In this document: positions 10,319 to 30,154 of the stretch, in pieces
Layout of the letters: every line of letters starts with the position of its first letter
How positions within the stretch are numbered: the stretch's first letter is position 1
Source: Minisyncoccota bacterium
GTDB lineage: Bacteria > Patescibacteriota > Minisyncoccia > UBA6257 > GWB1-50-10
Length of the DNA stretch: 64,000 bases
NCBI GenBank assembly: GCA_041659005.1
Contig: JBAZZD010000001.1
Location: forward strand, 16,366 to 80,365
Direction: 5' to 3'
Notes under the pieces: generated by a model
Database searches by the model: none
What the model was told of the DNA's origin: nothing
Seen by the model: only the letters and a program-made list of their open reading frames with translations
Position numbers and translations under genes: made by a program

Positions 10319-10423
10319 TATTGACGATTATACCACTCTTTATATAATTTTATGGTATAATATTATTATATGTGTTGGAGGTCGAAACGCATACTGAGTA
10401 AAATTAAAAACTAACAAAACATT

Positions 10424-10630
10424 ATGAACAAACTCAATGCTTTCGACTGGCTTGCTGTGGTACTAGTTATCGTCGGTGGCCTAAACTGGGGATTAGTCGG
10501 TATTTTCAACTTTGATCTCGTGACCACCATCTTCGGTGATATGTCCGCGCTCTCAAGAGTCGTGTACGCGCTCGTCGGACTTGCTGCCGTCTATCTCGCC
10601 GCTATATCCATGAAGCTTGCTAAGCAGTAA
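10424..10630 (+). CDS. DUF378-family small membrane protein
   Basis: 68 aa, two TM helices, conserved GGLNWGLVG motif. Confidence 0.6.
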   Translation: MNKLNAFDWLAVVLVIVGGLNWGLVGIFNFDLVTTIFGDMSALSRVVYALVGLAAVYLAAISMKLAKQ

Positions 10631-10661
10631 GCTTTTTCTATTTAAATAAAAATCAAACAAG

Positions 10662-10691
10662 AAACCGTCTCTTTAACGAGCGGTTTTTTGT
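10662..10691. terminator. Bidirectional rho-independent terminator between convergent genes
   Basis: AACCGTCTC..GAGCGGTT hairpin followed by TTTTTTG. Confidence 0.5.
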
Positions 10692-10693
10692 TG

Positions 10694-11368: not shown

Positions 11369-11547
11369 TTGTATAGGAGCTAACAGATTGATTATAACAA
11401 ATAATTATAATAATGATTAAAATTCTCCGCTCCGATGGATAGCGGATGTTAGAACTATAATTGAGAAACAAGAAGGATATATTCATATTCCTGACTTTAA
11501 AATGTATGCTGATTTATAGTTCACCTCACCACTCCACTCACTGTATT

Positions 11548-13050: not shown

Positions 13051-13257
13051 AAATTAAATGTATTGTTTTATTATTGATAATACCACCACTTGAACAAATA
13101 AAAAACACTGATTATATCAATGTTTTTTTAAATGGCTCCGAGCTGTGCAGGAACTTAGAACCGTTATTTTAAGCGGTTGGCACTCCTACGAAATGGACGC
13201 GGCCGTTAAAATGCTCCGGGGAGAGGAACCGTTCGACTTGATTGATTAAAAAGTCAG

Positions 13258-14367: not shown

Positions 14368-14417
14368 TTGTGTATTTTTATTATACCAGTATTCAATATG
14401 TAAAATATTTCCATAAA

Positions 14418-14702
14418 CTATTTCTTTTCTTTAGGCGGTCCCCACTGCCAGCGTGGTTTTTCTCCTTTCCAATATCCGAAAATGAATATAAGCGCAATCA
14501 TGAGCAGAAAGCCCAAGAGTGCCGCACCTGGTGCGTCATCGGTATCTCCAACATAAATACCGGCAATAACAATAGCTATTCCGATGATCACAATAAGCCA
14601 GCCTTGCCATTTCACCGGCACCCAGCCCCAGCCGTAGAGCTTGGCCTTGAACCAGTAACCCTGCGGATTGTCTTTTAAATATTTTATGTATTGTTTAAAC
14701 AT
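14418..14702 (-). CDS. Small 2-TM membrane protein, last gene of the defense-like operon
   Basis: 94 aa. Two hydrophobic helices. W-rich (WGWVPVKWQGW). 18-nt gap to the upstream gene. Confidence 0.4.
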   Translation of the reverse strand: MFKQYIKYLKDNPQGYWFKAKLYGWGWVPVKWQGWLIVIIGIAIVIAGIYVGDTDDAPGAALLGFLLMIALIFIFGYWKGEKPRWQWGPPKEKK

Positions 14703-14720
14703 ATATATTATCTGTTGTTT

Positions 14721-15284
14721 TTAATGCGATAGAAACTTTCCTAATAATCGCTCTTTAACCTGATAAAGCTCTTCTTTAGTAAACACATCCTGATAATCCC
14801 AAAGACGTCCATTTGAACTAAAAGCGTTCAAATAGTGCTCACAGTAAATTTTTGGATTAATAAAGATCGTGTCATCGCGTTTTTCCCAGCCTAGAGCGGA
14901 GGTGTAATCATAGCCAATATCGTAACCGCCGATACCAAGCCATTGATGAGCGAGTATATTACGCCAATTATGGATTGATTCGGCCACCTGAGAAAACCTC
15001 GTGTCAGATGTATCACCGTCAACAAATTTCTCCAAAAATAATTTATATCCCTCAGGACCGCTTTTGTTGAAAAAACCTTCGGAGATCGTAAGTGCGACCG
15101 CGTGAATACCAAGAAACATAAGTGATGTTTGATAGTGATCATCCTCGGTTGTTAAACGAATTTCGTTGTTAAAGAAATTAGCAATAGAATTCAAAAGTGT
15201 TTCTATAATTTCTACAGGAGAACCATTTTGAAAACGTTTGATTCTTTTCTCCAGTGGCTCCAAATTGTGTGCTCGATTTTCCAT
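14721..15284 (-). CDS. Hypothetical protein with HEPN-like Rx4H motif
   Basis: WRNILAHQW matches the R-x4-H-x-aromatic HEPN signature. Co-operonic with the STAND-like gene. Confidence 0.4.
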   Translation of the reverse strand: MENRAHNLEPLEKRIKRFQNGSPVEIIETLLNSIANFFNNEIRLTTEDDHYQTSLMFLGIHAVALTISEGFFNKSGPEGYKLFLEKFVDGDTSDTRFSQVAESIHNWRNILAHQWLGIGGYDIGYDYTSALGWEKRDDTIFINPKIYCEHYLNAFSSNGRLWDYQDVFTKEELYQVKERLLGKFLSH

Positions 15285-15296
15285 CGTTGTTAATAA

Positions 15297-16166
15297 TTAA
15301 GGGTTACAAAATCTTATATAAACTCTTCGTAATTTATTACATAATTCGGGAATATTTTTTTTATCGACGTCTTCTGATTTAGGTATTTTATAATCACGAT
15401 GCACCATTTTATTTACCTCGTTTTTAAATACCCTGACTAAACTACACAAATCCTCAACCAAATCTTTGAAATCATAAAAGGCAGATGAATTTGCCTTTAA
15501 ATTATCAATTAATTTATCAAGATTTAAAATTCTTCCGTTAGTTGTGTCATACCATAATTGGTGATTTTGCTGTATATATTTTCCATTTTCATCCCGTTCC
15601 CTGAAAACTATTTCAAAAACTCTATGAATTATGCATTCTATTAATTTTCTGGTTAGAATCATCACGGCTAAATAAAGTCCTTCTCTATAGCTCTCATTTA
15701 TTTCTTTTTTTATGTAATCTAAAAATGGATCATTAAAATCATACTGTAAAAAATCTAAACTATTTTGAACCCCACTTATTTCTTCTTCTAATAATTCTAT
15801 TTTGTTTTGCGAAATATCTAGTTTGAAATTGGATTTTTTTACTTCGTCTAATAATTCTGGATACCATTTTTTAATATAGGTTCCGTAATAATTCCAGTTA
15901 TCTCTTTGTGTATTTTTTATTTTTTCATCAAAAATTACTTTCTCTAAAATGGCTAAATATCTATATGAAGGAACTCTTTGCATAAACTGAGCAAAATTAT
16001 TTTGCTCAGTACTCATGAATGAATAGGCCTCAAAGTTACTATAAAAATTATCGGGTAAATTAATCCCGTTAGCTTTTAAAAAATCAACAAATCCACCATT
16101 TTCATAACAGTGTATGTATAGCTTTTCAGATAATTCCCATATTCTGTTATTAATTATTAAAGCCAT
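15297..16166 (-). CDS. Hypothetical protein (operon partner of the Mrr-NTPase gene)
   Basis: 289-aa ORF, 3-nt gap to the upstream gene. No family recognised. Confidence 0.45.
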   Translation of the reverse strand: MALIINNRIWELSEKLYIHCYENGGFVDFLKANGINLPDNFYSNFEAYSFMSTEQNNFAQFMQRVPSYRYLAILEKVIFDEKIKNTQRDNWNYYGTYIKKWYPELLDEVKKSNFKLDISQNKIELLEEEISGVQNSLDFLQYDFNDPFLDYIKKEINESYREGLYLAVMILTRKLIECIIHRVFEIVFRERDENGKYIQQNHQLWYDTTNGRILNLDKLIDNLKANSSAFYDFKDLVEDLCSLVRVFKNEVNKMVHRDYKIPKSEDVDKKNIPELCNKLRRVYIRFCNP

Positions 16167-16169
16167 ATT

Positions 16170-19100
16170 TTACGATTTTGGCGATATAAGTTCCTCACCT
16201 TCATCTAGGTGTCTTTTTATATCGTCAGCGATTGATCCAGTTAAAGAATCTACATAGTTTTTTATAACTCCTGGCTGGCACTTGGCGCTTATTTTTTCTA
16301 ATGCTTCTTTTTTATTTACTAATGCAGGTGGAGCTTGCCCTACTGTGGAACTATAACTACCACTTATCACCTGATGAGTAAAAACGTCTTTTGCTTCATC
16401 TAACACCCCTGCTTTTTCGGCCGCCATCAAAAAATTCAAAAACAAATCAATTGTATCTGCACCAAAAGAGATGCCAAAAAAAGCATTAGTAGCTATTTTC
16501 AAACTTTCTGCGTCTCCAGTCTTTATTTTGTCACCAATATAGTGCAATAAATAGTCGCCGTGTTCACTATCATGACCACCAATGCTTTTACCCAAAAATC
16601 CATCAATATCGAAAGAGAATAAAAGTTCCTCATTTCGCCAAAAATTAATTTTATCCATCAATTTTGCAAAATCATCATAGTTCTTAATTAGCTCCGTAGC
16701 CGAACGAAAACCGTCAAAGGGAATTGCATCAAATTTTTCAGCGCCTCTATTTTTAAAATATTCGCTCTGTTTTTTGAGACGATATTCAACCAATTCAATA
16801 AACTGATCCAAATCACCATTAAGTGCAAATTTTAATAGATCGTCTGTGTGATAATCTACCGAAGGGATATCTTTTATTATTTCAAATAATTTTTTACGAA
16901 TTTTATCTAAATCACCGCTTGGTAAATTCCAATTTACGGCATTGTGAACTAGAAAATCGAACATATCTAATACGTTGCTGTTGACTACACCACTTAAAGA
17001 CTGCTCAAGAATATTCACAACCTGGTTTTTTTCTGTTTGATCCCTGTCCTTAAAAATAAAATAAGAACGATGAAGAATAAGATTCTTAAGATAATCATCT
17101 GCTTTCTCAATAATCTGAGATATCCACGGCATAAATTCTGCCGTAGAAACATTATGTCGTATTATAAGGTCTAAAAGATTGTCTACAGCTTGGCGTTGAA
17201 GATTATTTAAATCTCCTAAGATTCGGCTAGCATATTTCATTATGTATTGTTTATCCCTATCGGAGGCAACTCTATAAATTCCGAGATGGAATCTATTAGG
17301 AACACTACTCAACAAATTTTCATCATCTACGATCTCAATAAATGATTGGTTATTGAATTTAGACCAAGTCTCAACTAAAGGAATAGTCTGCCATTGAGTA
17401 ATTCCCTTCACTTCATTCTCAAGTTCATATAAGTATTTAATAATCTCGGCTCTGCTTTTATATTTATTAGATAGCCTTTTTACTACCTCATCCAACTCTT
17501 CCTGTGGAAAATCATGAAGTCGAAAGTGATTATGAACAAGCCAAGACCATCTATCGCTCTCGGGGGCTCCAGACTCTATTTTTTTAAAATCGGAAATAAT
17601 CAAATCATGAGCCACAAAATATCGAAAAATAATGTATTCCATTGATCTCGGAAAATTTCTAAGTATGCCAGCAATTTTATCGCTCAAATCTAAATAAATA
17701 TTATTATTAGCCCAATATCTAACAAGAACGTCTTCGATAGAACTAAGCACCTCATGAGAACTTGTTTCGCTAATTAATTTCTCTAACCATTCAATAGCTT
17801 TTGTTTTATCGGATAGAATCCTCTTCCAAAAATCATCGCTTGTGGAGGTTGCCTCGTGACCGATGTCATCAACAATTTCCACGCCTATTTTTTTAATCTT
17901 GTCATTGGAGTGAAGAACCAACTTTTTCAGGACATCCATTCCTACATCTCTAAACTCATCCACTGGTTTTTTGTATATACCTTCATAACGCAGAATTCTT
18001 CTACCAAAAGTTATTTGGTTACCGTAACTTTCCCTATGTTCATGCGATCCAGAAAGGGATTCCAAGACACCATCGCTAGCAAGCCTTGCTTCGAGTTCGG
18101 TACAATTTCCTTTGCTAACCCAATCCAATAATTCCTTTAGTGATTGAGTAGCTGAAGCTATATTTACTTCAATGGGTGATATCGCTTGTTTTATAAGACT
18201 AGCGGGCTTGTAATTATCGTAAGTACCCTTAAGGTCTTTCTGGGCAAGATAAAGAATCAATTTTAATATTGCTTTTTCAAATCCAGGTACATGCAAAACA
18301 TGGTAAATGACTGGCCCATAAGTATCCCGATTTAGTCCATATGAATTCTGTGTATTCGATGAATTTACATAGGCATAAACCAAACTGATTGCCTCTTCAG
18401 GGGCTAAAAAAGCAATAGAAGCAGCGAGTTCTAATATTTTAGATTTAGATGAATCGGATGTCTCAGATGTTTCATTAATCCATTTTTGGAAAAGCTCCTT
18501 CACGGCTTCGTTCGCCGAATTCGTATCCTTATGTCTAGATGCAGCTGCCAAATTTGCTGTGAGTTGTTTAGGGTAGATAGATAACCAATTCTCAAACATT
18601 TCGTTCGCTAAATCTTTTCCATTTTCTTTATCTAATTCTACAGAAAGATAGATATCTCCTTTCATGTCAGGATTAAATCTTATCGAGGCGCCAACAACAC
18701 GAAGAATTTTTGCCTCAATAAGTTTATTCAGAGCTTCGTTTATTAAATCTACTTTTAATTCCAAAACAGTTGCCAACTTATCAAGCACATTATTTCCACG
18801 TTTTTCTTTTGAAAATGGGACAATAATAGATAGCTCTCTTAAAAAAGCCTTTGAGTTGCGTTCATCTAATACACCCTTAAGTGCGTTTACGGTTTCTTGG
18901 TCTAAATTATCTTTAATCTGCTTTTTAACTTGACTCGGGTTTAAGTCGCCACCCTTAATAAGTTTTCCTGTCGTGATTATTAAAAACAAATTTCCATTTA
19001 GTTCTTTTACGATTCTTTCTGGATGATTAATCTTTTTTGAATCAGCTGCTAGATTTAAAATTTCTATAAGTTCCTTCTCGGAAAGATGAGGTAACTCAAG

Positions 19101-20027
19101 TAAATTATAATTATCTACCCGCTGCGAATCCGCTAAATTCTTAACAATTTCTTTCCCAGAACTGCGACAAGACAAGACAACCTTTAACTTTCCAGGAGAA
19201 AATGTCTTAGTGTGAGCAATTAATTTTCTTGTATCGTCTAAATATCTTTCAGCGTCATCTAGAAATATCAAGGAATTCTTTTCGTGATCTAACTCATTGA
19301 TAGCTTCGTTAATATCTCTAATCCCAGGTCGACAAAACCATGTTTGAATACCTGGCCATAAAGAATCGCCATTTTTTCCAGATTCTACAATAAAATGTGT
19401 TTTTCCATAGCCACCTCCAGAATGAACAATAAGAAGATTAGATGTATTTTTTTGTATAAATTCCTTTAAAATATTTACTGATTCTTCTCGGCCGACAAAA
19501 ACTCCTTTAAGAAGCGGCTCTGATTCGGCGAATACATGAGCTGGAACGAATGTTGGTTCTTGGGGATCGCCAAAGTAGTTATGCCTTAATAGCGGATATT
19601 GAGTTGTTTTACTTTCTAAGTTGGCTCGCGGCCAAATAAATAACTGATCGACGAATTTTTTATTTTCGTTTAGCTTCTCAAGTTTACCTATATGATCGTC
19701 GGTGCCTATTCTCAAATCAGCATTTGTCGCAACCAGTAAAAAATTCACTTTATTCTTCTTTGCCTTTTCTAACTCCTTTTTAATCTCTCTCTGTAATTGT
19801 TTATAGGCTGCCTCAAGATTATGTTTGGTCCATTTCGCTTGGAAATTCCAAACACCCTTAAGACCCATATATGGTCCGTCATAACGCCCATCCCAACCGC
19901 CATCTGCTCCAATTTCCGGATTGCTTGAGAGAAAAGCGGGGTGGTTAATTTCTAATGCAAAAAGATCGTTTACTAAACGTTGGAAGTCTCTATCATTATT
20001 GATTTTATTCCAATCTAGGTTTTTCAT
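16170..20027 (-). CDS. Large defense-like protein: N-terminal Mrr-like restriction endonuclease domain + P-loop (STAND-like) NTPase + long helical-repeat C-terminus (Avs-like architecture)
   Basis: N-terminus GADGGWDGRYDG..FQAKW (Mrr_cat-like PD-(D/E)xK). Walker A LIVHSGGGYGKTHF. Walker B LIFLDDAERY. About 950 aa of helical repeats. Start overlaps the res stop (ATGA). Confidence 0.6.
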   Translation of the reverse strand: MKNLDWNKINNDRDFQRLVNDLFALEINHPAFLSSNPEIGADGGWDGRYDGPYMGLKGVWNFQAKWTKHNLEAAYKQLQREIKKELEKAKKNKVNFLLVATNADLRIGTDDHIGKLEKLNENKKFVDQLFIWPRANLESKTTQYPLLRHNYFGDPQEPTFVPAHVFAESEPLLKGVFVGREESVNILKEFIQKNTSNLLIVHSGGGYGKTHFIVESGKNGDSLWPGIQTWFCRPGIRDINEAINELDHEKNSLIFLDDAERYLDDTRKLIAHTKTFSPGKLKVVLSCRSSGKEIVKNLADSQRVDNYNLLELPHLSEKELIEILNLAADSKKINHPERIVKELNGNLFLIITTGKLIKGGDLNPSQVKKQIKDNLDQETVNALKGVLDERNSKAFLRELSIIVPFSKEKRGNNVLDKLATVLELKVDLINEALNKLIEAKILRVVGASIRFNPDMKGDIYLSVELDKENGKDLANEMFENWLSIYPKQLTANLAAASRHKDTNSANEAVKELFQKWINETSETSDSSKSKILELAASIAFLAPEEAISLVYAYVNSSNTQNSYGLNRDTYGPVIYHVLHVPGFEKAILKLILYLAQKDLKGTYDNYKPASLIKQAISPIEVNIASATQSLKELLDWVSKGNCTELEARLASDGVLESLSGSHEHRESYGNQITFGRRILRYEGIYKKPVDEFRDVGMDVLKKLVLHSNDKIKKIGVEIVDDIGHEATSTSDDFWKRILSDKTKAIEWLEKLISETSSHEVLSSIEDVLVRYWANNNIYLDLSDKIAGILRNFPRSMEYIIFRYFVAHDLIISDFKKIESGAPESDRWSWLVHNHFRLHDFPQEELDEVVKRLSNKYKSRAEIIKYLYELENEVKGITQWQTIPLVETWSKFNNQSFIEIVDDENLLSSVPNRFHLGIYRVASDRDKQYIMKYASRILGDLNNLQRQAVDNLLDLIIRHNVSTAEFMPWISQIIEKADDYLKNLILHRSYFIFKDRDQTEKNQVVNILEQSLSGVVNSNVLDMFDFLVHNAVNWNLPSGDLDKIRKKLFEIIKDIPSVDYHTDDLLKFALNGDLDQFIELVEYRLKKQSEYFKNRGAEKFDAIPFDGFRSATELIKNYDDFAKLMDKINFWRNEELLFSFDIDGFLGKSIGGHDSEHGDYLLHYIGDKIKTGDAESLKIATNAFFGISFGADTIDLFLNFLMAAEKAGVLDEAKDVFTHQVISGSYSSTVGQAPPALVNKKEALEKISAKCQPGVIKNYVDSLTGSIADDIKRHLDEGEELISPKS

Positions 20028-22387
20028 AATTCAAGTGCCATCCATTCTTTCCAATCATCCTGTTCGCATTTCTCCCAATCATAAATAGCCTTGTCGCTGA
20101 TGTGCCAGGCACGATTGCGTTCAATGACAATACCGCCGAAAAGCTTCTTGTTTTTCTGATCGGCAATGTATTTCTGCAAAGCTTCGGCTTTAGCTTTGGT
20201 GTAGGTTATACCGTCCCGATCACCGGAGTCTTTGACTTCAAACAAACCGATTCGACCGTCGGCAAACTTCACTAAATAGTCCGGGTAGAACGTATAGATG
20301 CCTCCGGCATATTCGTACTTTATGCCAAAGTAATCCTGCTTATTCTCTCCATTTTTCCACCACCAATCAATCTTAGAGGCGTTGTCGTTCAAGAATGACT
20401 CAAACTCACGTTCTGGCTTTGAGCGATCCACATTGAGATAACACGGATCATAAGCATACTTTTTCGCTTTTACGATTTCATCGGTGTACTCGTTATAAAA
20501 CTGCTCAGGCTGAAGCTCAAAAGGATATCGCTGTTCGCTTTCCTCGATACGCTCTCGGACTTCCTGCTCTTTAACAGCCTTATAGTTATCAATCGCCGTA
20601 GCCAGTACGTGCTCAAAGTAGCCACGATTTTTATCGTGCAAGAAAACCTTCTGCGCCATGAGCATATTTTCCTCACCCCAGCTCTTTGAGCCGAGCACCC
20701 CCTGAAACCAGAGATAGATGGCCGCTTTAACCGACGGGACCGAACGCTTCACGTTCTTGAAAGGTCCGAGATTGTTTTTAATGGTCTGCTCAAAAAAGAC
20801 CATGAGCTCGTCGGCCGCCACCTGAAGCTTGGCAAAACCTTCGGCACCGAGCTTACCCTCAAGCTCATCAAAACTTTTTATATCCAAATGCGTATCGGCG
20901 ATAATTTCTTGCTGATACTTCTTGATATTGAGATCAACGCCCTTGCTCTCAACTTTCTTGGCGTTCTCCGCTGGTTTATTTTTGCGTGATACGCCAAAGT
21001 ATTTATTGGCTGTTTCTTCAAAGACATCGTGGAAGCTGGATGTGACATCGCCATAATCCGCTCGAGCTTTGTAGTACGACTCTATCTTGAGCGATTTGTA
21101 ATCCTTTGTGCGTCCAGCTCGCAAATGCTTGATGATGTTCGGATTGTATTCTTCCTTTTTAACTTCGATTGATTTGAGATTGGTATAGATATAACCACGA
21201 TTGAGCATTTCGTGTCCGTAGTGTCGCTGTTCCGGCATACGCAAAATACGGCCAACAGTTTGGATTTCAAAGACGATATTATGTGTCTCTCGAAACTTCA
21301 CAAGAATGTGTGCTCGAGGACAATCCCAGCCGGTATCAATGGCTTGCTTGAAAATAAGAAATTCAATCTCGTTATCCGGCTCGGCGATCCAATCAATAAG
21401 CTCTGACTTCTGTTCGGCCAGCCAGATAGCCAGCTTGCCGTTGCCGTGCCCATCTTTACGTTCAACGATACTCTTACCAGCCAGAAATTTCTTCACTGCT
21501 TCGATCTTTTGGTCACCAGCTTCTGCGGTAGGAATCTGTACCAGAACCAAAGGATTGATATGTGATCCTTCTTTTTCAAATACCTTTTTAAGTTCTAGAC
21601 GCTTACGATAGGCGGCCTCGAGTACAGCTGATTGTGAGTCATCTTCGGAAGCGGCGATTTTCTCTATATCCTCGTTGATGATGATTTCTTTCTTAATCAT
21701 ACCTTCGTCAATCACATCTTTCGGCTCGACTATGACATAGCCAGCACCGCCTCGAGCCAGTTCCTGGGTAAAACCGAGCTCCTGCTGTGGCCGACGGGGA
21801 GTAGCGGACATTTCGATCACAATATCTGCACCGATAAGGTCGCGGAGCTCATTTGCCCGGGCTGTGTCAGCACTTACGTGGCTCTCATCAATAATAAGAA
21901 TGATTTTACGTTGCTCTCTGGTCTTCTCGAGCACATCCCGAAAATTTAACTTCTCGCCGTCTTTCATGACCAAGTTTTTCCAATCTCCGGATTCACGTTC
22001 CTTGCTTCGAAGTTTTTCCCAGTTGGCGACCACGACTTCGTTTTGCACGATCCGTTCACGCCCACCGCTAAAGGCATTCTCGACAGATGTAACTCGAGGG
22101 AAACCAGCGAATACCTTTTCGAGCGAATGTTTGCTCTGTAAATGAAGCTCACCCTTACCGATACTCATCCAAACAAAGCAAAAATCTTCTTTGGGGAGTT
22201 CTTTGATAATACCCTCGATGTACTTAGCCATCATGATGGTCTTACCCGAACCAGTGGGAGATTGAAAGACGCACACTTCGCCCGGGCCGTCATAACCCAA
22301 AAGCTTGACCGTTGTTTCGATCAGCTGATTAACGGCTTTTTCTTGATAAGGTTTAAGATCAATATTCATAAATTTGTTTATATACAT
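20024..22387 (-). CDS. res: Type III restriction enzyme Res subunit (SF2 helicase + endonuclease)
   Basis: Walker A FQSPTGSGKT and IIDESH (DEAH-like) box. Overlaps mod by 29 nt. Confidence 0.75.
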   Translation of the reverse strand: MYINKFMNIDLKPYQEKAVNQLIETTVKLLGYDGPGEVCVFQSPTGSGKTIMMAKYIEGIIKELPKEDFCFVWMSIGKGELHLQSKHSLEKVFAGFPRVTSVENAFSGGRERIVQNEVVVANWEKLRSKERESGDWKNLVMKDGEKLNFRDVLEKTREQRKIILIIDESHVSADTARANELRDLIGADIVIEMSATPRRPQQELGFTQELARGGAGYVIVEPKDVIDEGMIKKEIIINEDIEKIAASEDDSQSAVLEAAYRKRLELKKVFEKEGSHINPLVLVQIPTAEAGDQKIEAVKKFLAGKSIVERKDGHGNGKLAIWLAEQKSELIDWIAEPDNEIEFLIFKQAIDTGWDCPRAHILVKFRETHNIVFEIQTVGRILRMPEQRHYGHEMLNRGYIYTNLKSIEVKKEEYNPNIIKHLRAGRTKDYKSLKIESYYKARADYGDVTSSFHDVFEETANKYFGVSRKNKPAENAKKVESKGVDLNIKKYQQEIIADTHLDIKSFDELEGKLGAEGFAKLQVAADELMVFFEQTIKNNLGPFKNVKRSVPSVKAAIYLWFQGVLGSKSWGEENMLMAQKVFLHDKNRGYFEHVLATAIDNYKAVKEQEVRERIEESEQRYPFELQPEQFYNEYTDEIVKAKKYAYDPCYLNVDRSKPEREFESFLNDNASKIDWWWKNGENKQDYFGIKYEYAGGIYTFYPDYLVKFADGRIGLFEVKDSGDRDGITYTKAKAEALQKYIADQKNKKLFGGIVIERNRAWHISDKAIYDWEKCEQDDWKEWMALEL

Positions 22388-24089
22388 CTAATATCTTTTG
22401 AGGAATGGGTTCGAGCGTAACACCATGCCAGTTAGCGAACTCTGTTTTTGAAAGACCTGTGGCATCGAGCGTGAAGCAGTAAAGTATTTTCTCACCATCA
22501 ATTTCCTTTAGCTCTTTTTTCAAGGCGGGCAATGATTTACGGTCCAAAGAATAGTAAACAGCCAGCGTTTTATTGCCTTGTTGGAATATACGATAGTGAT
22601 CGGTCTTTTTTACTTCATCAAACACGCCTTCTCGCAAACAAAGCATCTCGGTGCATTCCTGTGTAATCCGTATCTTAAAGTCATCGCCGTTGGCGTTCTT
22701 TTTTACGAATTTTGTCTTGAAATATTTAAGAGAGCCACCCGTACCCGGCACTTTTACATTTTCAGAATTTTTATATCCTCCAGATACATTTTTCAGTCGA
22801 GGATAGCAAACTTCCGTACAAATATTGCCCTCGTCATTAGTACAAAGTATAAATTCTCTTTTTCCACCGTCCTGATTAAGTTCAAGAACTGCGTGACCCG
22901 TAGTACCTGAACCGGCAAAAAAATCGAGAACAATCCCGTCTTTTTTGATGGAGAGATTGATACATTTTTTAATTAGCTCAACTGATTTAGGGAAGTCAAA
23001 AAGATGCTGATGAAACATACTTTTCAAAACCTCTTTCCCGTTTTCGTTGTTTATGTTTTTATCTAACCATAAAGCTTTTTCTTTGGTTGTAGCTGTTTCT
23101 CCATTCTGCTTTATAAGACGATCTTTTCTATAGACTCGCCAAGCACCTGTTGAAACCTTTTTACCGACAAGATCAGTTATTTCCTTGGCGACTTTTTCTT
23201 TACCCCATGTCCAGCAACCGTCTTCGTTTTTAGAGTTGCGTGGGTAGACCTCAACATAGCCTTTCTTGTTAGTTAAAGAAACTACACCATTTTTTAAATC
23301 AACAAAAAGTGGGTAATAAAGATTTGGTCGGTTCTTTCGATTAAAGACAGGGTTACGATTTCTTAATTCCAAGAGACGATATTTCCCTTTCTCGTCCTCT
23401 TTATCATATTCGGCCAGCATTTCCTCACCTTTAGTAGGTTCTATAATTTGTGCAATGTTAAAATCCTTGGCGAAAACTAAAATATATTCAAAAGTTTTTG
23501 CGAAATGTTTATCAAGCGTTCTGCCTCGCGGATTTAGTTGGACAACAAGTTGAGCAATAAAGTTTTTCTCTCCAAAAATATCATCACATAATAGTTTAAG
23601 GTGCGAGACTTCATTGTCGTCTATGCTAATGAAAATAACCCCGGAGTCCTTAAGTAGGTTTTTTGCGAGCTGAATTCTCTTTGCCATAAAAGAGAGCCAT
23701 TTACTGTGCCGATATGCATCTTCTCTGTCGACGTAATTGTCATTATATTTAAAGTCCTTGTTGCCCGTGTTATACGGCGGATCAATATAGATCACATCAA
23801 CCTTACCTTGATGCGTAAAATTCAAAACTGAGAGAGCATGATAATTATCTCCCTCGATCAAAATATTAACCGGCCTGGACGGGTCCTTGTCAGTAATTTC
23901 CTTAGAACCGATTTCTTTTAGTACCGGTAAAGCATTCTCTGCATCTTTCTCAAATTGTTCTTTGACTTTTTCCTCATCCCAAATAAGCCCGTACTTCTTT
24001 CGGGACTCCAACTTCTCAACAATTTTGACTAACTCTTCTTTGCTGAGTTGGGAGTAGTCTTTTCCATTTTTGGCGATTTCCTTTTGCAT
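22359..24089 (-). CDS. mod: Type III R-M DNA methyltransferase Mod subunit (N6A/N4C beta-class)
   Basis: Motif IV IYIDPPYNTGN and motif I VLDFFAGSGTTGHAV. Confidence 0.8.
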   Translation of the reverse strand: MQKEIAKNGKDYSQLSKEELVKIVEKLESRKKYGLIWDEEKVKEQFEKDAENALPVLKEIGSKEITDKDPSRPVNILIEGDNYHALSVLNFTHQGKVDVIYIDPPYNTGNKDFKYNDNYVDREDAYRHSKWLSFMAKRIQLAKNLLKDSGVIFISIDDNEVSHLKLLCDDIFGEKNFIAQLVVQLNPRGRTLDKHFAKTFEYILVFAKDFNIAQIIEPTKGEEMLAEYDKEDEKGKYRLLELRNRNPVFNRKNRPNLYYPLFVDLKNGVVSLTNKKGYVEVYPRNSKNEDGCWTWGKEKVAKEITDLVGKKVSTGAWRVYRKDRLIKQNGETATTKEKALWLDKNINNENGKEVLKSMFHQHLFDFPKSVELIKKCINLSIKKDGIVLDFFAGSGTTGHAVLELNQDGGKREFILCTNDEGNICTEVCYPRLKNVSGGYKNSENVKVPGTGGSLKYFKTKFVKKNANGDDFKIRITQECTEMLCLREGVFDEVKKTDHYRIFQQGNKTLAVYYSLDRKSLPALKKELKEIDGEKILYCFTLDATGLSKTEFANWHGVTLEPIPQKILDVYKQIYEY

Positions 24090-24095
24090 AAAATT

Positions 24096-24287
24096 TTATT
24101 TCTTCTTACGTTTAACATTGCTCGTGTCCTCAAGAAAAGCATTTAGGTCCGACTGCTTGATCCGCCAGACTCCGAGCTTGGATGCTTTAAGCCGGCCGGC
24201 TTCGATGTACCGTGTGACCGTGCGTGTATGCACTCGTAAAATTTTAGCGACTTCCTCAATCGTAAAAAGTTTTTCGATTTCGTTCAT
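24096..24287 (-). CDS. Excisionase-family/MerR-like HTH DNA-binding protein
   Basis: 63 aa. LFTIEEVAKILRVHTRTVTRYIEAGRLKASKLG matches the Xis-family HTH. Immediately upstream of mod. Confidence 0.7.
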   Translation of the reverse strand: MNEIEKLFTIEEVAKILRVHTRTVTRYIEAGRLKASKLGVWRIKQSDLNAFLEDTSNVKRKKK

Positions 24288-24400
24288 AAAAATATATTAG
24301 TCGTTGATACCATTTTACCGCTTCTGCTTTTCGTTGTCAAAAACGCCGTCTTTTGTCATAATGAGCTTAACAACAAAAAGAGCACACTGTTTTAACAATA

Positions 24401-24470
24401 AGGATATCACTATATCACTCTGTTGATATAGTAAGTGGCTTTACTATCTCAGTTGATTGATATAGTAAAT
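24401..24470. repeat. Iteron/operator-like cluster of short direct and inverted repeats
   Basis: GATATCACTATATCAC. Two copies of TTGATATAGTAA and its inverse TTACTATCTCA within 70 bp. Confidence 0.4.
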
Positions 24471-24618
24471 TTAGTGAATGCCAATGCAACAAAAGTGTAT
24501 TACTGTCGAAAAGTGAACTGGAAAGGACTTTAAACACCCTTTCCAGTTAAAAAACGAAGCTGAACTCCATTAACTTCTTGTCAGCTTTTGTCAGATCAGC
24601 TGTCCACAGAAATGGGTG

Positions 24619-24648
24619 TTGACGGTCCCTAGAGAAATCCGCTAAAAT
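24619..24648 (+). promoter_or_regulatory. Sigma70-like promoter candidate
   Basis: TTGACG (24619-24624), 18-bp spacer, TAAAAT (24643-24648). Confidence 0.35.
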
Positions 24649-24654
24649 ATACAT

Positions 24655-24790
24655 ATCAGAGTTAGTTGGTCTGACGGCGACTGAATTCTCAGTCTAAACG
24701 TGACGGGACTACGACTACTGTTATCAGCACTGCCATTTGGTGTGTGCATTTGATGACAAGAGTCGTGGTCCCGTTTTTTGTTTTCCAGCT
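24655..24790 (+). ncRNA. Candidate small RNA (promoter to strong intrinsic terminator, no ORF)
   Basis: Internal hairpin GACTGAattcTCAGTC. Terminal 14-bp stem ACGGGACTACGACT/AGTCGTGGTCCCGT (24703-24774) followed by TTTTTTGTTTT. Confidence 0.3.
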
Positions 24791-24895
24791 CGCTCTGCTG
24801 ATAAATAATTTCCCTCTGAGGCTAAGGTGCCTCGATTAGACCGACGAATTTGATTAGACGGATAAAGGCTAGCTCCCGGCAGGGGCCAGCCTTTT

Positions 24896-25096
24896 ATGTT
24901 GCCCCAAGAAGCAATCCAAGAATTTAAAACACTGTACGAAAAACGCTACGGCGTAAAGCTCTCCGATGAGGAGGCTGCTTTGCGCGCGAATAATCTTTTC
25001 AAACTTTACAAGATCACCTACATGGGTGAGCCAAACATCGACGACTTCAAAGAAAAAGTAGTGAAAAGCCATGACCTCAACACCAACCACAATTAG
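24896..25096 (+). CDS. Hypothetical small protein
   Basis: 66-aa ORF in the GC-rich segment. No family recognised. Confidence 0.3.
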   Translation: MLPQEAIQEFKTLYEKRYGVKLSDEEAALRANNLFKLYKITYMGEPNIDDFKEKVVKSHDLNTNHN

Positions 25097-25379
25097 CGAA
25101 ATACAGTTCTACCCGGTTAAACCCCAGGACGGCCTCCTTGGGTTTGTTTCGTTTGTCCTGGACAGCAAATTCTGGATGGGATCGGTGGCTGTTTTCTCCA
25201 GGCGCGAGGGCGGATACCGGCTTGTGTATCCAACACGCAAAGTTGCCGGACAAAACATTAATATTTTTCATCCAATTAACCACGAAGTCGGCATCCTGGT
25301 CGAAAAAGCCGTCAGTGAAAAAGTAGCTGAAATATTTAGTGAATCATATGAACAAACCGAACCGGACAACACGTGGTAA
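25071..25379 (+). CDS. SpoVG-family protein
   Basis: ISEIQFYPV..DGLLGFVSFVLD..F.....V....EGGYRLVYPTRK....INIFHPIN..VG..VEKAV aligns with the conserved SpoVG core (..HPIN..). Confidence 0.6.
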   Translation: MTSTPTTISEIQFYPVKPQDGLLGFVSFVLDSKFWMGSVAVFSRREGGYRLVYPTRKVAGQNINIFHPINHEVGILVEKAVSEKVAEIFSESYEQTEPDNTW

Positions 25380-25779
25380 AAGCTTAAATTTCTTTCCGGC
25401 TCCTCACCTGGTCTTCGATGACGACCGGCTGAAGAATTCGCTCACGCACGCCGAGCGGGATTTTCTCATGGTTATCTGCCACCTCTCAAACCGCTATGCA
25501 AATGCAGCCGGCTGGTTTTGGCATACCGATCGATTGTTTACCACGCGCGAAGACAAGGAGCGCGGGTTCGCTTCGTTTGGGTTTAGCAGATCAACATGCC
25601 GCCGGGTGAGAAAGAAGCTTGCCGGTCTTGGACTGATAGAAACCAGACCGGGAACATCGGAACGTGGCCGGTGGGCCGGAACTTTGTATCGCCTTAACCC
25701 CAGACTTCTCCAGCCTGCCGGGGTTCATAATGAAGCACGGTCAGGTGTCTTAGAGAATCATGGCCCGGGTCCACCATGA
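25339..25779 (+). CDS. Hypothetical protein with winged-helix-like C-terminal region
   Basis: CRRVRKKLAGLGLIETR resembles a wHTH recognition helix/wing. GC-rich codon usage. True start uncertain (overlaps SpoVG-like ORF). Confidence 0.35.
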   Translation: MNHMNKPNRTTRGKSLNFFPAPHLVFDDDRLKNSLTHAERDFLMVICHLSNRYANAAGWFWHTDRLFTTREDKERGFASFGFSRSTCRRVRKKLAGLGLIETRPGTSERGRWAGTLYRLNPRLLQPAGVHNEARSGVLENHGPGPP

Positions 25780-26063
25780 AGCACTTAGTAATAAAGATTG
25801 AGTAAGAAAGAAACAATAAGAGAGCTTAAATAAAGCGAGATGGCTCGTCAAAAATTAAAAAATAGGGGTTGGGCAAAGCTTGGGTGAAACTTGGGCAGAT
25901 TTTCGAGAAGATAACCAAATAAAAGGCGAACAAAATCGGTACAAGAATAGATACCCAACCTGTAAATAAAGGCGTAAAATGTAAGTAATTAAGTGTTTGA
26001 CTTCTTTCGACCTTAGGACCATGTTGTGCTTAGGTCGAGAAAATAATTAATGAAAACAATCAT

Positions 26064-26927
26064 ATGACAAACAAAGCCAAAATAACCACCGTAATCGCCC
26101 TTGTAGCGGTCTTTGGTGCAGGATTCGGGGTTTATTACCTTCTAGGAAACAAAGCACCGCGCGGAGGCACGAATACAGACGTAGCCTCAATTACGACATT
26201 CGAGCAATGCTCTGAGGCCGGTTACCCGATCGTTAAGCATTATCCAGATCAGTGCAAAACTCCGGACGGTAGAATTTTTGTAAACGACAATCCTCCAAGC
26301 CAAACAGAGCTTGTGAAAGCCGAGCAAACAATTCGAACGTTCATGGGAGAGCTGAATCTGGAGTTGCAATACACCGGACAAAATAATCATCCCACGAATT
26401 TTGCCGTCTTAAGCAACGTTAAACAGAACGACGGCGGATTTACGGCCGACAATCCCGAAGAATGGGACCGGCCGGTCTACATCTTCCAGCAAACAGATTA
26501 CATCAACGACCGCTGCGAAGTTTATCAATATCAGGTAACGCAAAAAACGAATCAGGTCGTGGAAATCGGAATTGTCTATCCGATAGAACGCAACGCTACC
26601 ACGCCAGGTAATTGCCCTGGTAACGGATCGCTGGAAACTCCGCTGAAGACCAAAGCTGAAATCGAACAAATTGCCTTCGCTTATTTCGGCAGAGACCCGG
26701 AACACACGAAATTCATGCTTCGCTCCGACATCCAGCTTAAATACATCTCAAGCAAACCAGGCGCAGCAAACCCGGCTGCCAATGAATGGCAATGGGAAGA
26801 CAAAAACGCCTCACTGCCGGACGGACTGACCGGCGATCCGTGGCAGCACCCGATTGCCAGAATCATAATATCAAGTGGCGGTAAACTGATTTACTATCTG
26901 AACACCACCGACTTATTCCAAAACTAA
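26064..26927 (+). CDS. Secreted/membrane-anchored hypothetical protein
   Basis: N-terminal TM/signal (ITTVIALVAVFGAGFGVYYLL). GC-rich. No family recognised. Confidence 0.5.
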   Translation: MTNKAKITTVIALVAVFGAGFGVYYLLGNKAPRGGTNTDVASITTFEQCSEAGYPIVKHYPDQCKTPDGRIFVNDNPPSQTELVKAEQTIRTFMGELNLELQYTGQNNHPTNFAVLSNVKQNDGGFTADNPEEWDRPVYIFQQTDYINDRCEVYQYQVTQKTNQVVEIGIVYPIERNATTPGNCPGNGSLETPLKTKAEIEQIAFAYFGRDPEHTKFMLRSDIQLKYISSKPGAANPAANEWQWEDKNASLPDGLTGDPWQHPIARIIISSGGKLIYYLNTTDLFQN

Positions 26928-26928
26928 T

Positions 26929-28512
26929 ATGAACCAGGAAGTACAACCAAAACTCAAGTACTTCCTCTACGCTCGAAAATCTTCAGAACAAGAAGACAGA
27001 CAGGTCCTTTCGATTGACTCGCAAAAGAGCGAATTGGAAGCACTCGCAAAACGGGAAAAGCTTCAGATTGTGGAGCGTCTCGAAGAATCCTATTCAGCCA
27101 AAGCACCAGGCCGGGAGATCTTTAACGCGATGATAAAACGAATAGAGAAAGGTGAAGCGGAGGGCATTGTTGCGTGGCATCCGAACCGGCTCTCACGTAA
27201 TTCCGTGGACACCGGCTACCTGGTCTACCTTATGGACCAGAATAAACTCCTCGAAATCCGAACACCCGGACAGGCATTTAAGAATTCGCCAAATGATAAA
27301 TTTTTACTAAACCTCCTGTGCAGCCAAGCCAAACTCGAAAACGACAACAAGGGCGTGGACGTAAAACGTGGACTCAGGCGCAAAGTAGAGATGGGCTGGC
27401 ATCCGGGCGTTGCTCCAATCGGCTATATGAATACGCCGGACAAAATGAAAGGTTTTAAGACGATCCGCAAAGACCCGAAGATGTTTCCGATAATCCGGAA
27501 AATGTTCGATATGATTTTGAGCGGTACATACACCGCGCCACGTGTCCATGAAATTGCCGTCAATCAATGGGGCTTAAAGAAACTCGCCCGAAGCGGTTTC
27601 TACCGCGTGCTTTACAATTCCTTTTACTACAGTTGGTTTGAGTGGCCGGCCGGATCGGGCAACTGGCACAAGGGCAAGCACGAACCGATGATCACGCGCG
27701 ATGAATATGACCGCGTTCAGGCACTCCTTGGCCGTGGCAGCAAGCCAAAACCAGAAGCACATTCATTCGCATATACCGGAATGATCCGATGTGGTGAATG
27801 CGGATGCATGGTAACGGCCGAGAATAAAATAAAGAAAAATAAGAACGGCAATGTCCACCACTACACTTATTACCACTGCACGAAACGCAAAGGTCCATGC
27901 GCTCAGAAATGCATAGAAGTGAAAGAAATGGAAAAGCAGATTACCGGCACGCTTGCTAAAGTCCGGCCACCGGAAGAATTCCACGGCTGGGCAATGAAGT
28001 GGCTGCAGAACGAGAACGGTCGCGAAGCGGCCGACCGCAATGCGATCCTCTCTAATCAGCAGAAAAATTACGAAGCATGTGTGCGGAAACTGGACGCGCT
28101 TATAGATATGCGTGCAGCTGGGGAAATTAGTGAAGAAGAATTTGCACGAAAAAAATCAACGATCAATCAGGAGAAAGCAAAACTGCATGAGCTTTTGAAT
28201 GATACTGACGCGCGGGTGGACAGCTGGCTGCAGACGGCCGATAACGTGATCAAGTTCGCAACAGACGCCAAAGAAGCATTTACGGAACGGGGCCAGCACG
28301 CGAGAAAAGTCATTTTATCCGCCTTAGGTTCGAACCTCCTCCTAAAGGACAAAAACATAAGCATTGACACGGATTCTGCGCTTCTGCCGATGATTCTCGT
28401 CTCAAATTCGTCCGCAAAAAATTCTGGCACGTTCGAACCTCCGAATGAAGGCTCTAATAAAGAGAAAAGCCACGCTTTTGACGTGGCAAATCCCATGTGG
28501 CTCCCCGGGTAG
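26929..28512 (+). CDS. Large serine recombinase (phage-integrase type)
   Basis: Resolvase N-terminal domain YARKSSEQEDRQVLSIDSQ with catalytic Ser. Recombinase domain. C-terminal zinc ribbon CGECGCMV..YYHCTKRKGPCAQKC. Last ~14 nt overlap tRNA-Asn. Confidence 0.85.
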   Translation: MNQEVQPKLKYFLYARKSSEQEDRQVLSIDSQKSELEALAKREKLQIVERLEESYSAKAPGREIFNAMIKRIEKGEAEGIVAWHPNRLSRNSVDTGYLVYLMDQNKLLEIRTPGQAFKNSPNDKFLLNLLCSQAKLENDNKGVDVKRGLRRKVEMGWHPGVAPIGYMNTPDKMKGFKTIRKDPKMFPIIRKMFDMILSGTYTAPRVHEIAVNQWGLKKLARSGFYRVLYNSFYYSWFEWPAGSGNWHKGKHEPMITRDEYDRVQALLGRGSKPKPEAHSFAYTGMIRCGECGCMVTAENKIKKNKNGNVHHYTYYHCTKRKGPCAQKCIEVKEMEKQITGTLAKVRPPEEFHGWAMKWLQNENGREAADRNAILSNQQKNYEACVRKLDALIDMRAAGEISEEEFARKKSTINQEKAKLHELLNDTDARVDSWLQTADNVIKFATDAKEAFTERGQHARKVILSALGSNLLLKDKNISIDTDSALLPMILVSNSSAKNSGTFEPPNEGSNKEKSHAFDVANPMWLPG

Positions 28513-28572
28513 GACTCGAACCTACAACCATCGCGTTAACAGCGCGCCGCTCAACCATTGAGCTACCGGGGA
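28498..28572 (-). tRNA. tRNA-Asn (GTT)
   Basis: Hand-folded cloverleaf. Acceptor TCCCCGG/CCGGGGA. D-arm GCTC-AATGGTT-GAGC. Anticodon loop CTGTTAA. T-arm GTAGG-TTCGAGT-CCTAC. Encoded CCA. Confidence 0.8.
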
Positions 28573-29023: not shown

Positions 29024-29209
29024 ATAGTCGCCTCAAATTTGTTAGTATGTTTAAGAACCTGTTTAGTATGCACCAAAACAAGAAAAAAATGCAACATTGA
29101 AAAAAAACGCGATCTTTTGTATAGTAAACTTCATACTTAAGAAAACTGATAATCATGAAGCCCCTATAGCTCAGTTGGTAGATCCGCCGTGGCGGACTCT
29201 TAAGCAAAT

Positions 29210-29464
29210 ATGTTCTTCGTCTATTTAATAAAAAGTAAAACATCAGGAAAAATATATATTGGACAAACGATAAATCTTGAAAAAAGATTAATGCGGCACA
29301 ATGGAATACTTCCAACAAAAAATTCATCATTCACTAATAAACAAGGGGAAAATTGGGAGGTACTATATACAGAACAATTTAAAACAAGAACAGAAGCAAA
29401 AAAGAGAGAAAGAGAATTAAAATCAGGAAAAGGTAGAGAATTTCTTAAAAATCTAATACAGTAG
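29210..29464 (+). CDS. Small GIY-YIG (URI/YhbQ-like) nuclease, copy 1
   Basis: 84 aa. FFVYLIKSKTSGKIYIGQTINLEKRLMRHN is the GIY-YIG core. Confidence 0.6.
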   Translation: MFFVYLIKSKTSGKIYIGQTINLEKRLMRHNGILPTKNSSFTNKQGENWEVLYTEQFKTRTEAKKRERELKSGKGREFLKNLIQ

Positions 29465-29520
29465 TAATAAGCCCCTATAGCTCAGTTGGTAGATCCGCCG
29501 TGGCGGACTCTTAAGCAAAT

Positions 29521-29775
29521 ATGTTCTTCGTCTATTTAATAAAAAGTAAAACATCAGGAAAAATATATATTGGACAAACGATAAATCTTGAAAAAAGATT
29601 AATGCGGCACAATGGAATACTTCCAACAAAAAATTCATCATTCACTAATAAACAAGGGGAAAATTGGGAGGTACTATATACAGAACAATTTAAAACAAGA
29701 ACAGAAGCAAAAAAGAGAGAAAGAGAATTAAAATCAGGAAAAGGTAGAGAATTTCTTAAAAATCTAATACAGTAG
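29521..29775 (+). CDS. Small GIY-YIG (URI/YhbQ-like) nuclease, copy 2 (identical)
   Basis: Identical translation to 29210..29464. Confidence 0.6.
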   Translation: MFFVYLIKSKTSGKIYIGQTINLEKRLMRHNGILPTKNSSFTNKQGENWEVLYTEQFKTRTEAKKRERELKSGKGREFLKNLIQ

Positions 29776-29781
29776 TAATAA

Positions 29782-29854
29782 GCCCCTATAGCTCAGTTGG
29801 TAGAGCAGTTGCCTCTTAAGCAAACGGTCCTAGGTTCAAATCCTAGTGGGGGCA
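29782..29854 (+). tRNA. tRNA-Lys (CTT)
   Basis: Cloverleaf. GCCCCTA acceptor. D-arm GCTC-AGTTGGTA-GAGC. Anticodon loop CTCTTAA. T-arm CTAGG-TTCAAAT-CCTAG. 3' acceptor TGGGGGC+A. CCA not encoded. Confidence 0.8.
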
Positions 29855-29860
29855 CAAATT

Positions 29861-29890
29861 AAAAAATCCAAATTTGTTTGGGTTTTTTAA
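29861..29890 (+). terminator. Weak intrinsic terminator after tRNA-Lys
   Basis: AAAAAATCCAAAtttgTTTGGGTTTTTT. Confidence 0.4.
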
Positions 29891-29994
29891 TTTCTACTAG
29901 AATTTGAACAAAAGAGGGGTCGGGAGAACATTTCGGTCTCCCGCGTAGGAAATAGCCCGAAGGGCGTTTAGAAACCGAAGGTTTCTAAGGAGCG

Positions 29995-30024
29995 GAGCGA
30001 CGTTCAATTCCCTAGTGGGGGCAC
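29995..30024 (+). other. Diverged partial tRNA-Lys 3' fragment (T-loop + 3' acceptor strand) at the end of a structured ~130-nt segment
   Basis: GTTCAATTCCCTAGTGGGGGCACAA compared with the intact GGTTCAAATCCTAGTGGGGGCACAA. Preceded by three GAA-loop hairpins (GGGAGA..TCTCCC, GCCCgaaGGGC, TTAGAAACCgaaGGTTTCTAA). Confidence 0.5.
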
Positions 30025-30126
30025 AAATACCAAATTCCTACAGAGATGTCAGAATTTGAATTTTTAATTATTAATTTCTAATTTTTAAATAATAAGAATT
30101 CGAACACTTTCAGTCTACCTAATAAA

Positions 30127-30154
30127 ATCCCCCAAATACGGGGGTTATTTTTTA
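30127..30154. terminator. Bidirectional rho-independent terminator
   Basis: CCCCCaaatacGGGGG followed by TTATTTTTTA. Confidence 0.55.

Follow-up and report, generated by a model that had tools for sequence, protein, structure and literature searches.

Integrative elements of tRNA genes, and the cis-mobilizable elements (CIMEs) that derive from them and lack genes, bracket their insert with direct repeats of the tRNA 3′ end, with the functional end regenerated and the original one displaced, and can stand as tandem units behind one tRNA. Integron attC sites and the attP site of CTX phage, in which two inverted sites lie ~90 nt apart, have two inverted arms around a variable centre and conserve structure more than sequence. 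MITEs and REPINs are small, non-coding, hairpin-forming, multi-copy intergenic elements that often lie beside terminators and break assemblies where copies are identical. A fourth comparison is offered by tRNA-like RNAs, among them tmRNA, mascRNA, the bacterial Y-RNA-like YrlA and minihelices. Finally, group I introns occur at an unusual site, position 35/36, of tRNAs in CPR bacteria (Patescibacteria) (PMC13011429); they are different from the elements described here, which we call T'-core-T elements after their parts. Our literature search found no description of such elements, and the family is apparently undescribed.

The window, the whole 64,000-nt stretch of Minisyncoccota DNA that was analysed, holds a segment with three hairpins that lies 3′ of an intact tRNA-Lys gene and ends in a diverged tRNA-Lys 3′ fragment. 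The earlier note had reported both the hairpins and the fragment, and reading the sequence confirmed all of them. The locus is laid out as follows.

29097-29125, + strand reading of the tRNA-Lys locus: promoter-like site
29158-29779: perfect tandem repeat of a 311-bp unit, two copies, both with a tRNA-Lys 5′ fragment and an 84-aa GIY-YIG ORF
29782-29855, +: intact tRNA-Lys(CTT) (ARAGORN; Rfam tRNA, 70.8 bits)
29834-29854, +: final 21 nt of tRNA-Lys (T), GTTCAAATCCTAGTGGGGGCA, source of both arm copies
29856-29893, +: F1, terminator hairpin directly 3′ of tRNA-Lys, an inverted repeat with 17-bp arms and then a T-run
29889-29909, +: T', inverted copy of the tRNA-Lys 3′ end
29889-29896: outer part of T', AATTTCTA, U-rich, for which only G.U pairs are possible with TGGGGGC
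29897-29909, +: inner 13 nt of T', CTAGAATTTGAAC, complementary to GTTCAAATCCTAG
29910-30001, +: structured core of type 2 (from fold z, homologues and covariation)
29914-29921, +: core motif GAGGGGTC
29921-29943: first hairpin, H1, CGGGAGA (29921-29927) with TCTCCCG (29937-29943), read from the sequence
29944-29954, +: core joiner CGTAGGAAATA
29955-29965: second (extra) hairpin, GCCC-GAA-GGGC, read from the sequence
29968-29988: third hairpin, H2, TTAGAAACC-GAA-GGTTTCTAA, read from the sequence
29989-30001, +: core tail GGAGCGGAGCGAC
30002-30023, +: T (pseudo 3′ end), GTTCAATTCCCTAGTGGGGGCA, diverged direct copy of tRNA-Lys positions 53-73
30029-30146, +: F2, original tRNA-Lys 3′ flank (by orthology to L012, L101, L006, L005 and L009)
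30032-30057: decayed terminator hairpin of F2
~30055-30088: conserved AT-rich block of F2, TTTGAATTTTTAATTATTAATTTCTAATTTTTAAA
30095-30105: second, truncated T'-like site in F2, AGAATTCGAAC
30126-30146: bidirectional terminator of F2

Beyond the segment, ~120 nt of AT-rich spacer lead up to the terminator, which is followed by a convergent 81-aa ORF and a VanY gene. The 169-nt insert contains no ORF of at least 40 aa, as is the case for every other family copy, and a small ORF behind the AAGGAG/GGGAGA motif was rejected because it extends over only 4-13 codons and is unconserved. A promoter in the AT-rich block (30055-30088) was likewise dropped when the promoter scan gave it no score.

A copy of the tRNA 3′ end lies on either side of the segment, inverted on the left (T') and direct on the right (T). 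An 18-nt stretch of the tRNA-Lys 3′ end, CCTAGTGGGGGCACAAAT, recurs letter for letter in direct orientation (29842-29859 and 30011-30028); the exact repeat runs past T to 30028 (CAAAT) and spans ~27 nt if divergence is allowed; the 13-mer CCTAGTGGGGGCA has just two sites in the 64 kb, the tRNA 3′ end and the fragment, where 0.01 would be expected. T', which starts three bases past the terminator and faces T, matches the reverse complement of the tRNA-Lys T-loop and T-stem 3′ strand at 12 of its inner 13 positions (0.13 expected per window) and bears a T-loop variant, TTCAAAT, that is unusual and specific to the tRNA-Lys of the window. This inverted copy had been overlooked when it was stated that no matching 5′ acceptor strand lies nearby. 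Since T' can pair at 12 of 13 positions and its U-rich outer part can add G.U pairs with TGGGGGC, the segment is closed by a long-range helix and is not open-ended. Its predicted fold has a free energy of -44.5 kcal/mol (z = -2.8), with 1 of 200 shuffled sequences doing equally well.

The segment did not resemble any catalogued RNA. ARAGORN called only the two true tRNAs and placed no tRNA or tmRNA in the segment, cmscan against Rfam at E<=10 gave no tRNA match in 29856-30060, and none of the 4,227 models of Rfam 15, group I introns and self-cleaving ribozymes included, matched the window segment. For L078, L010 and L008, which represent core types 1, 3, 4 and 5, only tRNAs scored above threshold. 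The proposal of a tRNA-like small RNA, which the earlier note had wanted checked in this way, is thus unsupported as it was stated, there being neither a cloverleaf nor a match to a tRNA or tmRNA model; an RNA with a closing helix made of tRNA-derived strands is possible. T is a true copy of the T-stem 3′ strand, acceptor 3′ strand and discriminator, and the paired L037 5′ strand reproduces the tRNA 5′ acceptor strand, so that the closing helix there resembles the acceptor/T-stem stack of a minihelix. Unlike tRNA-like RNAs, however, the segment lacks a D arm, an anticodon arm and a T loop, its T-loop bases are paired, and the part complementary to the acceptor is degenerate in most copies, the window's among them. 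We also rejected a tmRNA or permuted tmRNA: the 5′ GGGGTC and GGATTCGA(A)C recall a tmRNA 5′ region, but ARAGORN and Rfam gave no match, the segment is too short, a complementary acceptor is missing and no GGGG 5′ strand pairs with the 3′ end. A minus-strand tRNA or pseudogene as the origin of GGATTCGAACC was discarded, judged by eye, for want of T-stem partners, and a hammerhead or C/D-box RNA because the candidate motifs (CTGATGA in L078; GTGATGA..CTGA in L156 and L006) are unconserved among homologues.

To place the segment in its genomic history, we compared related tRNA-Lys loci, reached via homologues of the neighbouring 81-aa protein. Contigs that encode an identical 81-aa protein also carry an identical element. 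The DNA from 30011 onwards aligns with the flank directly 3′ of the intact tRNA-Lys in L012 and with the flank 3′ of the equivalent pseudo-fragment in L005, L006, L009 and L101 (scores 96-122), whereas for the DNA 3′ of the true tRNA in the window the only alignment is with the matching stretch of L101 (106, versus 22-37 elsewhere). From this orthology it follows that T and its flank represent the ancestral tRNA end and that 29856-30010 was inserted; on these alignments, the T fragment is the displaced original 3′ end of tRNA-Lys. In L012 the first position is empty, and tRNA-Lys adjoins the flank directly. The comparison, suggested by the earlier note, thus bore out one half of its att-site remnant: a direct repeat bounds the insert, the flank continues past the distal repeat and T behaves as an attR-type displaced tRNA end. 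The word remnant did not survive: arms, core and a terminator of its own make the 169-nt insert a full member of a conserved, structured family, and it holds no integrase remnant; with no ORF, it has neither an integrase or recombinase gene nor cargo inside.

The second T'-like site, truncated in the window before the terminator, heads a complete second element in L009 and a type-2-like first hairpin in L012, and the AT-rich block 5′ of it is conserved in L012, L101 and L009. In L009 and L010, a GC hairpin of 19 nt sits inside the displaced tRNA-Lys 3′ fragment and breaks it in two, TGGG[CCTGCCTGCGGTAGGCAGG]GGCA.

We surveyed all 613 ARAGORN tRNAs in 278 sequences for a second copy of the 3′ end within 450-500 nt downstream. 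Tandem tRNA genes aside, the pattern was found only in CPR bacteria and some metagenome contigs; the genome-contig scan returned mostly ordinary tRNA-Lys genes (GGAG in the anticodon stem), and these loci served as controls. The elements have the order tRNA, usually a terminator, T', a structured core of 50-120 nt and T. They sit behind seven tRNA species, Lys, Arg (TCG and CCT), Asn, Ala, Ser, Ile and Gln, and their arms vary with, and fit, the local tRNA. Examples outside the window are listed below.

tRNA-Lys: L005, L006, L101, L078 and L080 (Paceibacterota relatives, Parcubacteria and Saccharibacteria)
tRNA-Arg(TCG): L101 (Parcubacteria LiPW_41)
tRNA-Arg(CCT): L037 (Patescibacteria REEB161)
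tRNA-Asn: L080 (Saccharibacteria)
tRNA-Ala(CGC): L101 (Parcubacteria LiPW_41)
tRNA-Ser(CGA): L133 (metagenome contig)
tRNA-Ile(TAT): L156 (metagenome contig)
tRNA-Gln, decayed: L142 (metagenome contig, which looks archaeal from its A1:U72 tRNA)

The T' of L037 is the reverse complement of its tRNA-Arg end over 21 nt without a mismatch, and none of the three tRNA transcription units in the 8 kb of L101 examined lacks an element. At least six types of core can be told apart by sequence; a purine-rich ..GRGAGA.. just 5′ of T is common to types 1 and 3-5, and types 5 and 6 have CGGTGCCC in common. The window segment is therefore a real, non-random member of a recurrent family, of which we examined only ~17 copies.

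This recurrence bears on one alternative, an inert scar left by a large element that integrated into tRNA-Lys and lost nearly everything, leaving attL and attR ~170 nt apart with incidental hairpins. Such a scar would leave the tRNA 3′ end repeated in direct orientation, with host flank on the far side, as is seen here, and tRNA genes do serve as integration targets in this genome, where an 18.8-kb island with a large serine recombinase lies at the neighbouring tRNA-Asn. However, the compact layout recurs at ~17 loci and seven tRNA species, its length stays within 70-170 nt and integrase fragments are absent throughout; lineages as far apart as phyla have homologous cores with compensatory changes, and T' is left unexplained. 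We regard the scar as improbable, and as already disfavoured.

The island itself occupies window positions ~9695-28497, between tRNA-Asn (28498-28572, minus strand) and a His_Phos gene as judged against L006, and is GC-rich (41-49% GC versus ~36%); its 527-aa large serine recombinase (26929-28512) overlaps the tRNA-Asn 3′ end. The island junctions are GGGGAGCC|ACATGG and GGCAGAGCA|GATAAATTTGG, where L006 reads GGGGAGCA|GATAAATTTGG. A link between the cassette and this island was rejected, because the border has no copy of the tRNA-Asn end and no T'-core. A repeated motif of ~27 nt, TTCCAACGGCGTCCCACTGGCAGAGCA, which weakly resembles the tRNA-Asn 3′ end (12/21), occurs in the window at 9694-9730 (-) and ~8350-8375 (-) and in L006 at 6555-6586 and 7150-7176. 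It marks the far border of the island and the borders of the His_Phos+NUDIX and 147-aa ORF blocks downstream of tRNA-Asn, and its copies may mark where successive integrations each left an attR-type scar.

The tRNA-Lys 5′ fragments upstream had been grouped with the 3′ segment, but they belong to an independent GIY-YIG mosaic, as L006 has the 3′ element and no GIY-YIG gene. We separate the two because no GIY-YIG gene lies near the other copies of the element and because GIY-YIG homologues carry tRNA 5′ copies of their own. A single interrupted tRNA gene, made of the 5′ fragment, GIY-YIG ORF, RNA and 3′ fragment, was rejected on the same L006 arrangement, on the absence of an intron model match and on the published position of CPR tRNA introns at 35/36 (PMC13011429). 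All GIY-YIG homologues sampled (44-67% identity; loci L278-L284) lie directly 5′ of or overlap a tRNA gene (Lys-CTT, Lys-TTT or Asn-GTT), and each is preceded by a partial tRNA 5′ copy with part of the D/anticodon arm swapped for a palindrome, TCCGCC-N2-4-GGCGGA. In L278 and L284, the intact tRNA is followed by a matching 3′ partial copy with the same GC palindrome. The near-identical strain L001 has one GIY-YIG unit where the window has two, and the ORF of L005 is internally deleted. Beside the mosaic on the CPR contig L278, ARAGORN called a 'tRNA-Pyl(CTA)' at 1301-1375, directly 5′ of a tRNA-Arg; an erroneous call is probable, or else a tRNA that is degenerate or suppressor-like. At ~2400-2830 (+) of L037, an intact tRNA-Lys(CTT) and the ~50-nt inverted repeats on either side of it lie together within another tRNA-Lys-like gene, a degenerate one whose split falls between anticodon positions 35 and 36, the insertion site reported for group I introns of Patescibacteria (PMC13011429).

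We then examined the core. The window, L101-Arg and L037-Arg have in common GAGGGG(K)C, H1, the joiner YGKNGGARRNAT and a GAAACC..GGTTTC hairpin, and the H1 stems differ by compensatory changes (GGGAGA/TCTCCC, GGGAAAAC/GTTTTCCC and GGGGAACC/GGTTCCCC). A covariance model, R1, built from the alignment of these three sequences scored the window itself at 121.8 bits and found its homologues at L101 1706-1834, L037 5946-6090(-) and L006 7225-7337 (79-129 bits; E 1e-20 to 1e-35). The L006 copy (79 bits, E 3e-20) is a fourth, independent member of type 2, with arms of the tRNA-Asn type; the window has every part of the type, with terminator, inverted tRNA-end copy, core parts and direct tRNA-end copy all present. 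Across the four type-2 sequences, 95% of pair cells are standard, compared with 33-59% when the partners are slid by 1-3 columns, and 10 pairs have changed on both sides; four type-5 sequences gave 90% compared with 39-50%, and 24 such pairs. In neither type did any of 500 shuffles reach the observed value. From these alignments the fold is clearly under selection, albeit in small samples of four sequences per type.

Homology and covariation of this kind also argue against local mutation as a sufficient explanation, that is, a by-product of template switching or foldback at the terminator hairpin plus unequal crossing-over, with neither function nor mobility. T, F1 and T' do form one extended palindrome centred on the terminator, and L006 contains a perfect 94-nt tandem duplication of T and its flank, as would be expected of such events. 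But local mutation explains neither homologous cores at unrelated tRNAs and in distant lineages, nor the covariation, nor the conservation of F1 with the element, and we consider it very unlikely.

What moves, and what stays, could be read from the flanks. F1 is near-identical between the window and L101-Lys and similar in L101-Arg and L006-Asn (A-tract, CCAAR..YTTGG stem, T-tract), whereas the F2 flanks 3′ of T are locus-specific; the inserted unit is therefore F1, T' and core together. In all 14 family members compared, the reverse complement of T' is closer to the true tRNA end than to pseudo-T, and pseudo-T is what decays: the window's has an indel, that of L009 a hairpin insertion, and those of L080-Lys and L142 are heavily decayed. 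A cassette that would bring the functional tRNA end with it, or be kept matched to that end, as the displaced host end drifts, fits this pattern.

Core types turn over at a fixed site. The window, L005 and L006, whose neighbouring proteins are ~80% identical, have core types 2, 3 and 1, respectively, at the same tRNA-Lys site, with unrelated sequence of the same outline between tRNA and T. In the L005 element, T is of the Lys type but T' is that of another type of tRNA, and L006 has a 764-nt piece, including a type-2 element, that is missing from the window. That type-2 element lies 2 kb from its tRNA-Asn; a 'long version with cargo' was rejected in favour of later insertions between the two, each ending in an Asn-3′-like sequence. 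A type-3 core is identical over exactly 98 nt in L009 and L034, which differ in their right flanks, probably reflecting an assembly break at the repeat with an inferred k = 99. Copies within one genome are old and diverged with their structure kept, as for the Lys and Asn copies of L080 and the three types in L101.

The explanation that we rank first, although we hold it tentatively and at slightly under an even chance, is that 29856-30010 is a non-autonomous, gene-less insertion cassette that needs its fold for its own maintenance; its family, present in CPR bacteria and in one or more archaeal-looking contigs, would target the 3′ ends of tRNA genes. The cassette would consist of the terminator F1, the inverted T-loop-to-discriminator segment T' and a multi-hairpin core of 50-120 nt. 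It would sit between the functional tRNA 3′ end and T, the displaced original end with its original terminator and flank. Gain or exchange would occur by recombination inside the tRNA 3′-end repeat, through either a site-specific recombinase acting in trans or homology-anchored replacement in which the conserved tRNA would serve as anchor. Paired T and T', together with the core, would provide a folded single strand that the element needs, either as single-stranded DNA, in the manner of integron attC and CTX phage attP, or as read-through RNA. Counted in favour of the cassette are displacement of the original end, recurrence at seven tRNA species, a selected fold, an F1 that travels with the element and core turnover.

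Compared with the described systems, the cassette behaves like integrative elements of tRNA genes and CIMEs in sharing the repeat-bracketed insert, the displaced end and the tandem units (the second T'-like site in the window; two elements in L009). It differs from them in its size of only 70-170 nt, in lacking an integrase or any other gene and in having T' and a covarying multi-hairpin core, neither of which is an attP-arm feature. The likeness to attC and CTX attP, for which we compared the systems by eye only, lies in the inverted arms around a 50-120-nt centre and in an arm helix with a conserved irregularity, a bulge or mismatch past the inner 6 bp; as with integrated CTX, a hairpin adjoins the regenerated target. 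The inner ends of type 2 (..GAAC / GTTC..) recall the AAC/GTT triplets of attC, but TTTGAAC / GTTCAAT does not fully match the consensus RYYYAAC / GTTRRRY, and the other types have no GTT on the T side. Unlike attC, the cassette has arms that are 13-21-nt copies of the local tRNA in place of R/L boxes, a core that is partly conserved in sequence, and no attI or cassette ORFs; a Pfam search of seven neighbouring ORFs found no integron integrase within ~3 kb of the element, and a role for single-stranded DNA is suggested by analogy. From MITEs, which it recalls in size, hairpins and the assembly break of L009/L034, the cassette is set apart by insertion confined to tRNA 3′ ends, a duplicated target of 18-33 nt and the absence of family-wide terminal inverted repeats. 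Since its terminal repeats differ according to the tRNA beside them, a transposase that recognises fixed ends is ruled out.

Several observations weigh against the cassette. None of the copies has a recombinase linked to it, searches of viral contigs and of phage and plasmid collections turned up no autonomous relative with genes of its own, and viral-contig scans and BLAST searches for a phage or plasmid origin were all negative. Classical integration leaves T' unexplained. Old, diverged copies with kept structure and near-invariant junction strands fit a functional RNA better than a recombination site; the stability of the tRNA-strand fold and the GNRA hairpin tips point away from the cassette as well, and the copies examined number only ~17.

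These last observations lead to the explanation that we rank second, and which is not mutually exclusive with the first: a gene for a small structured RNA that is linked to the tRNA and would be made either by read-through of the tRNA-Lys gene or by processing of its transcript. The T'/T closing helix would imitate the acceptor/T-stem stack, RNase Z, RNase P and the CCA-adding enzyme could set the ends, and the conserved core is proposed to be the functional part, either protein-binding or catalytic. Some junction strands are near-invariant between Saccharibacteria and Parcubacteria while the hairpins between them vary with compensatory changes, as expected for an RNA. The tRNA-strand fold is more stable than that of the opposite strand in 14 of 16 copies, and the consensus helices contain 16 and 10 G.U pairs versus 2 and 1 A.C pairs, a count biased by structure prediction on the tRNA strand. 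Type-2 relatives have GNRA tips (GGGA, GGAA and GAAA), no terminator intervenes between tRNA and T' in L133 and L078, F1 and F2 are both kept as hairpins despite different stems, and the L006-Asn copy retains its fold and a perfect 13-nt T' at 2 kb from the tRNA. In the window, by contrast, a strong terminator ends 3 nt 5′ of T' and the promoter scan scored no promoter-like site between F1 and T'. The orthologous site holds different core types in close relatives, which is unexpected for a housekeeping RNA; the decaying part is pseudo-T, the supposed 3′ strand of the closing helix (L080-Lys, L009 and L142); and no Rfam family matches. The C-GAA-G triloop, moreover, is a classic stable hairpin motif of DNA and would fit a DNA element equally well. 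Taken together, we consider an RNA gene possible but unlikely.

More doubtful still, yet worth stating for its reach, is that T'-core-T elements may constitute a new class of functional folded nucleic acid common to CPR bacteria and DPANN-like archaea, in RNA or attC-like form. As RNA, they may be ribozymes, guides or scaffolds whose T' arm addresses a particular tRNA or tRNA gene 3′ end; as DNA, they may form an integrase-independent, attC-like cassette system with tRNA genes as docking platforms. CPR genomes are ~1 Mb in size, with little spare DNA. If true, either form would amount to an unrecognised coupling of mobile or regulatory modules to tRNA genes in minimal genomes: a conserved, covarying, tRNA-addressed element would be either an RNA player in a stripped-down RNA metabolism or a minimalist site-specific mobile DNA. 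Mobile DNA of this kind would help to account for tRNA loci that vary between strains or break the assembly in metagenome-assembled genomes, and covariance models from the family could be used to annotate tRNA-adjacent loci.
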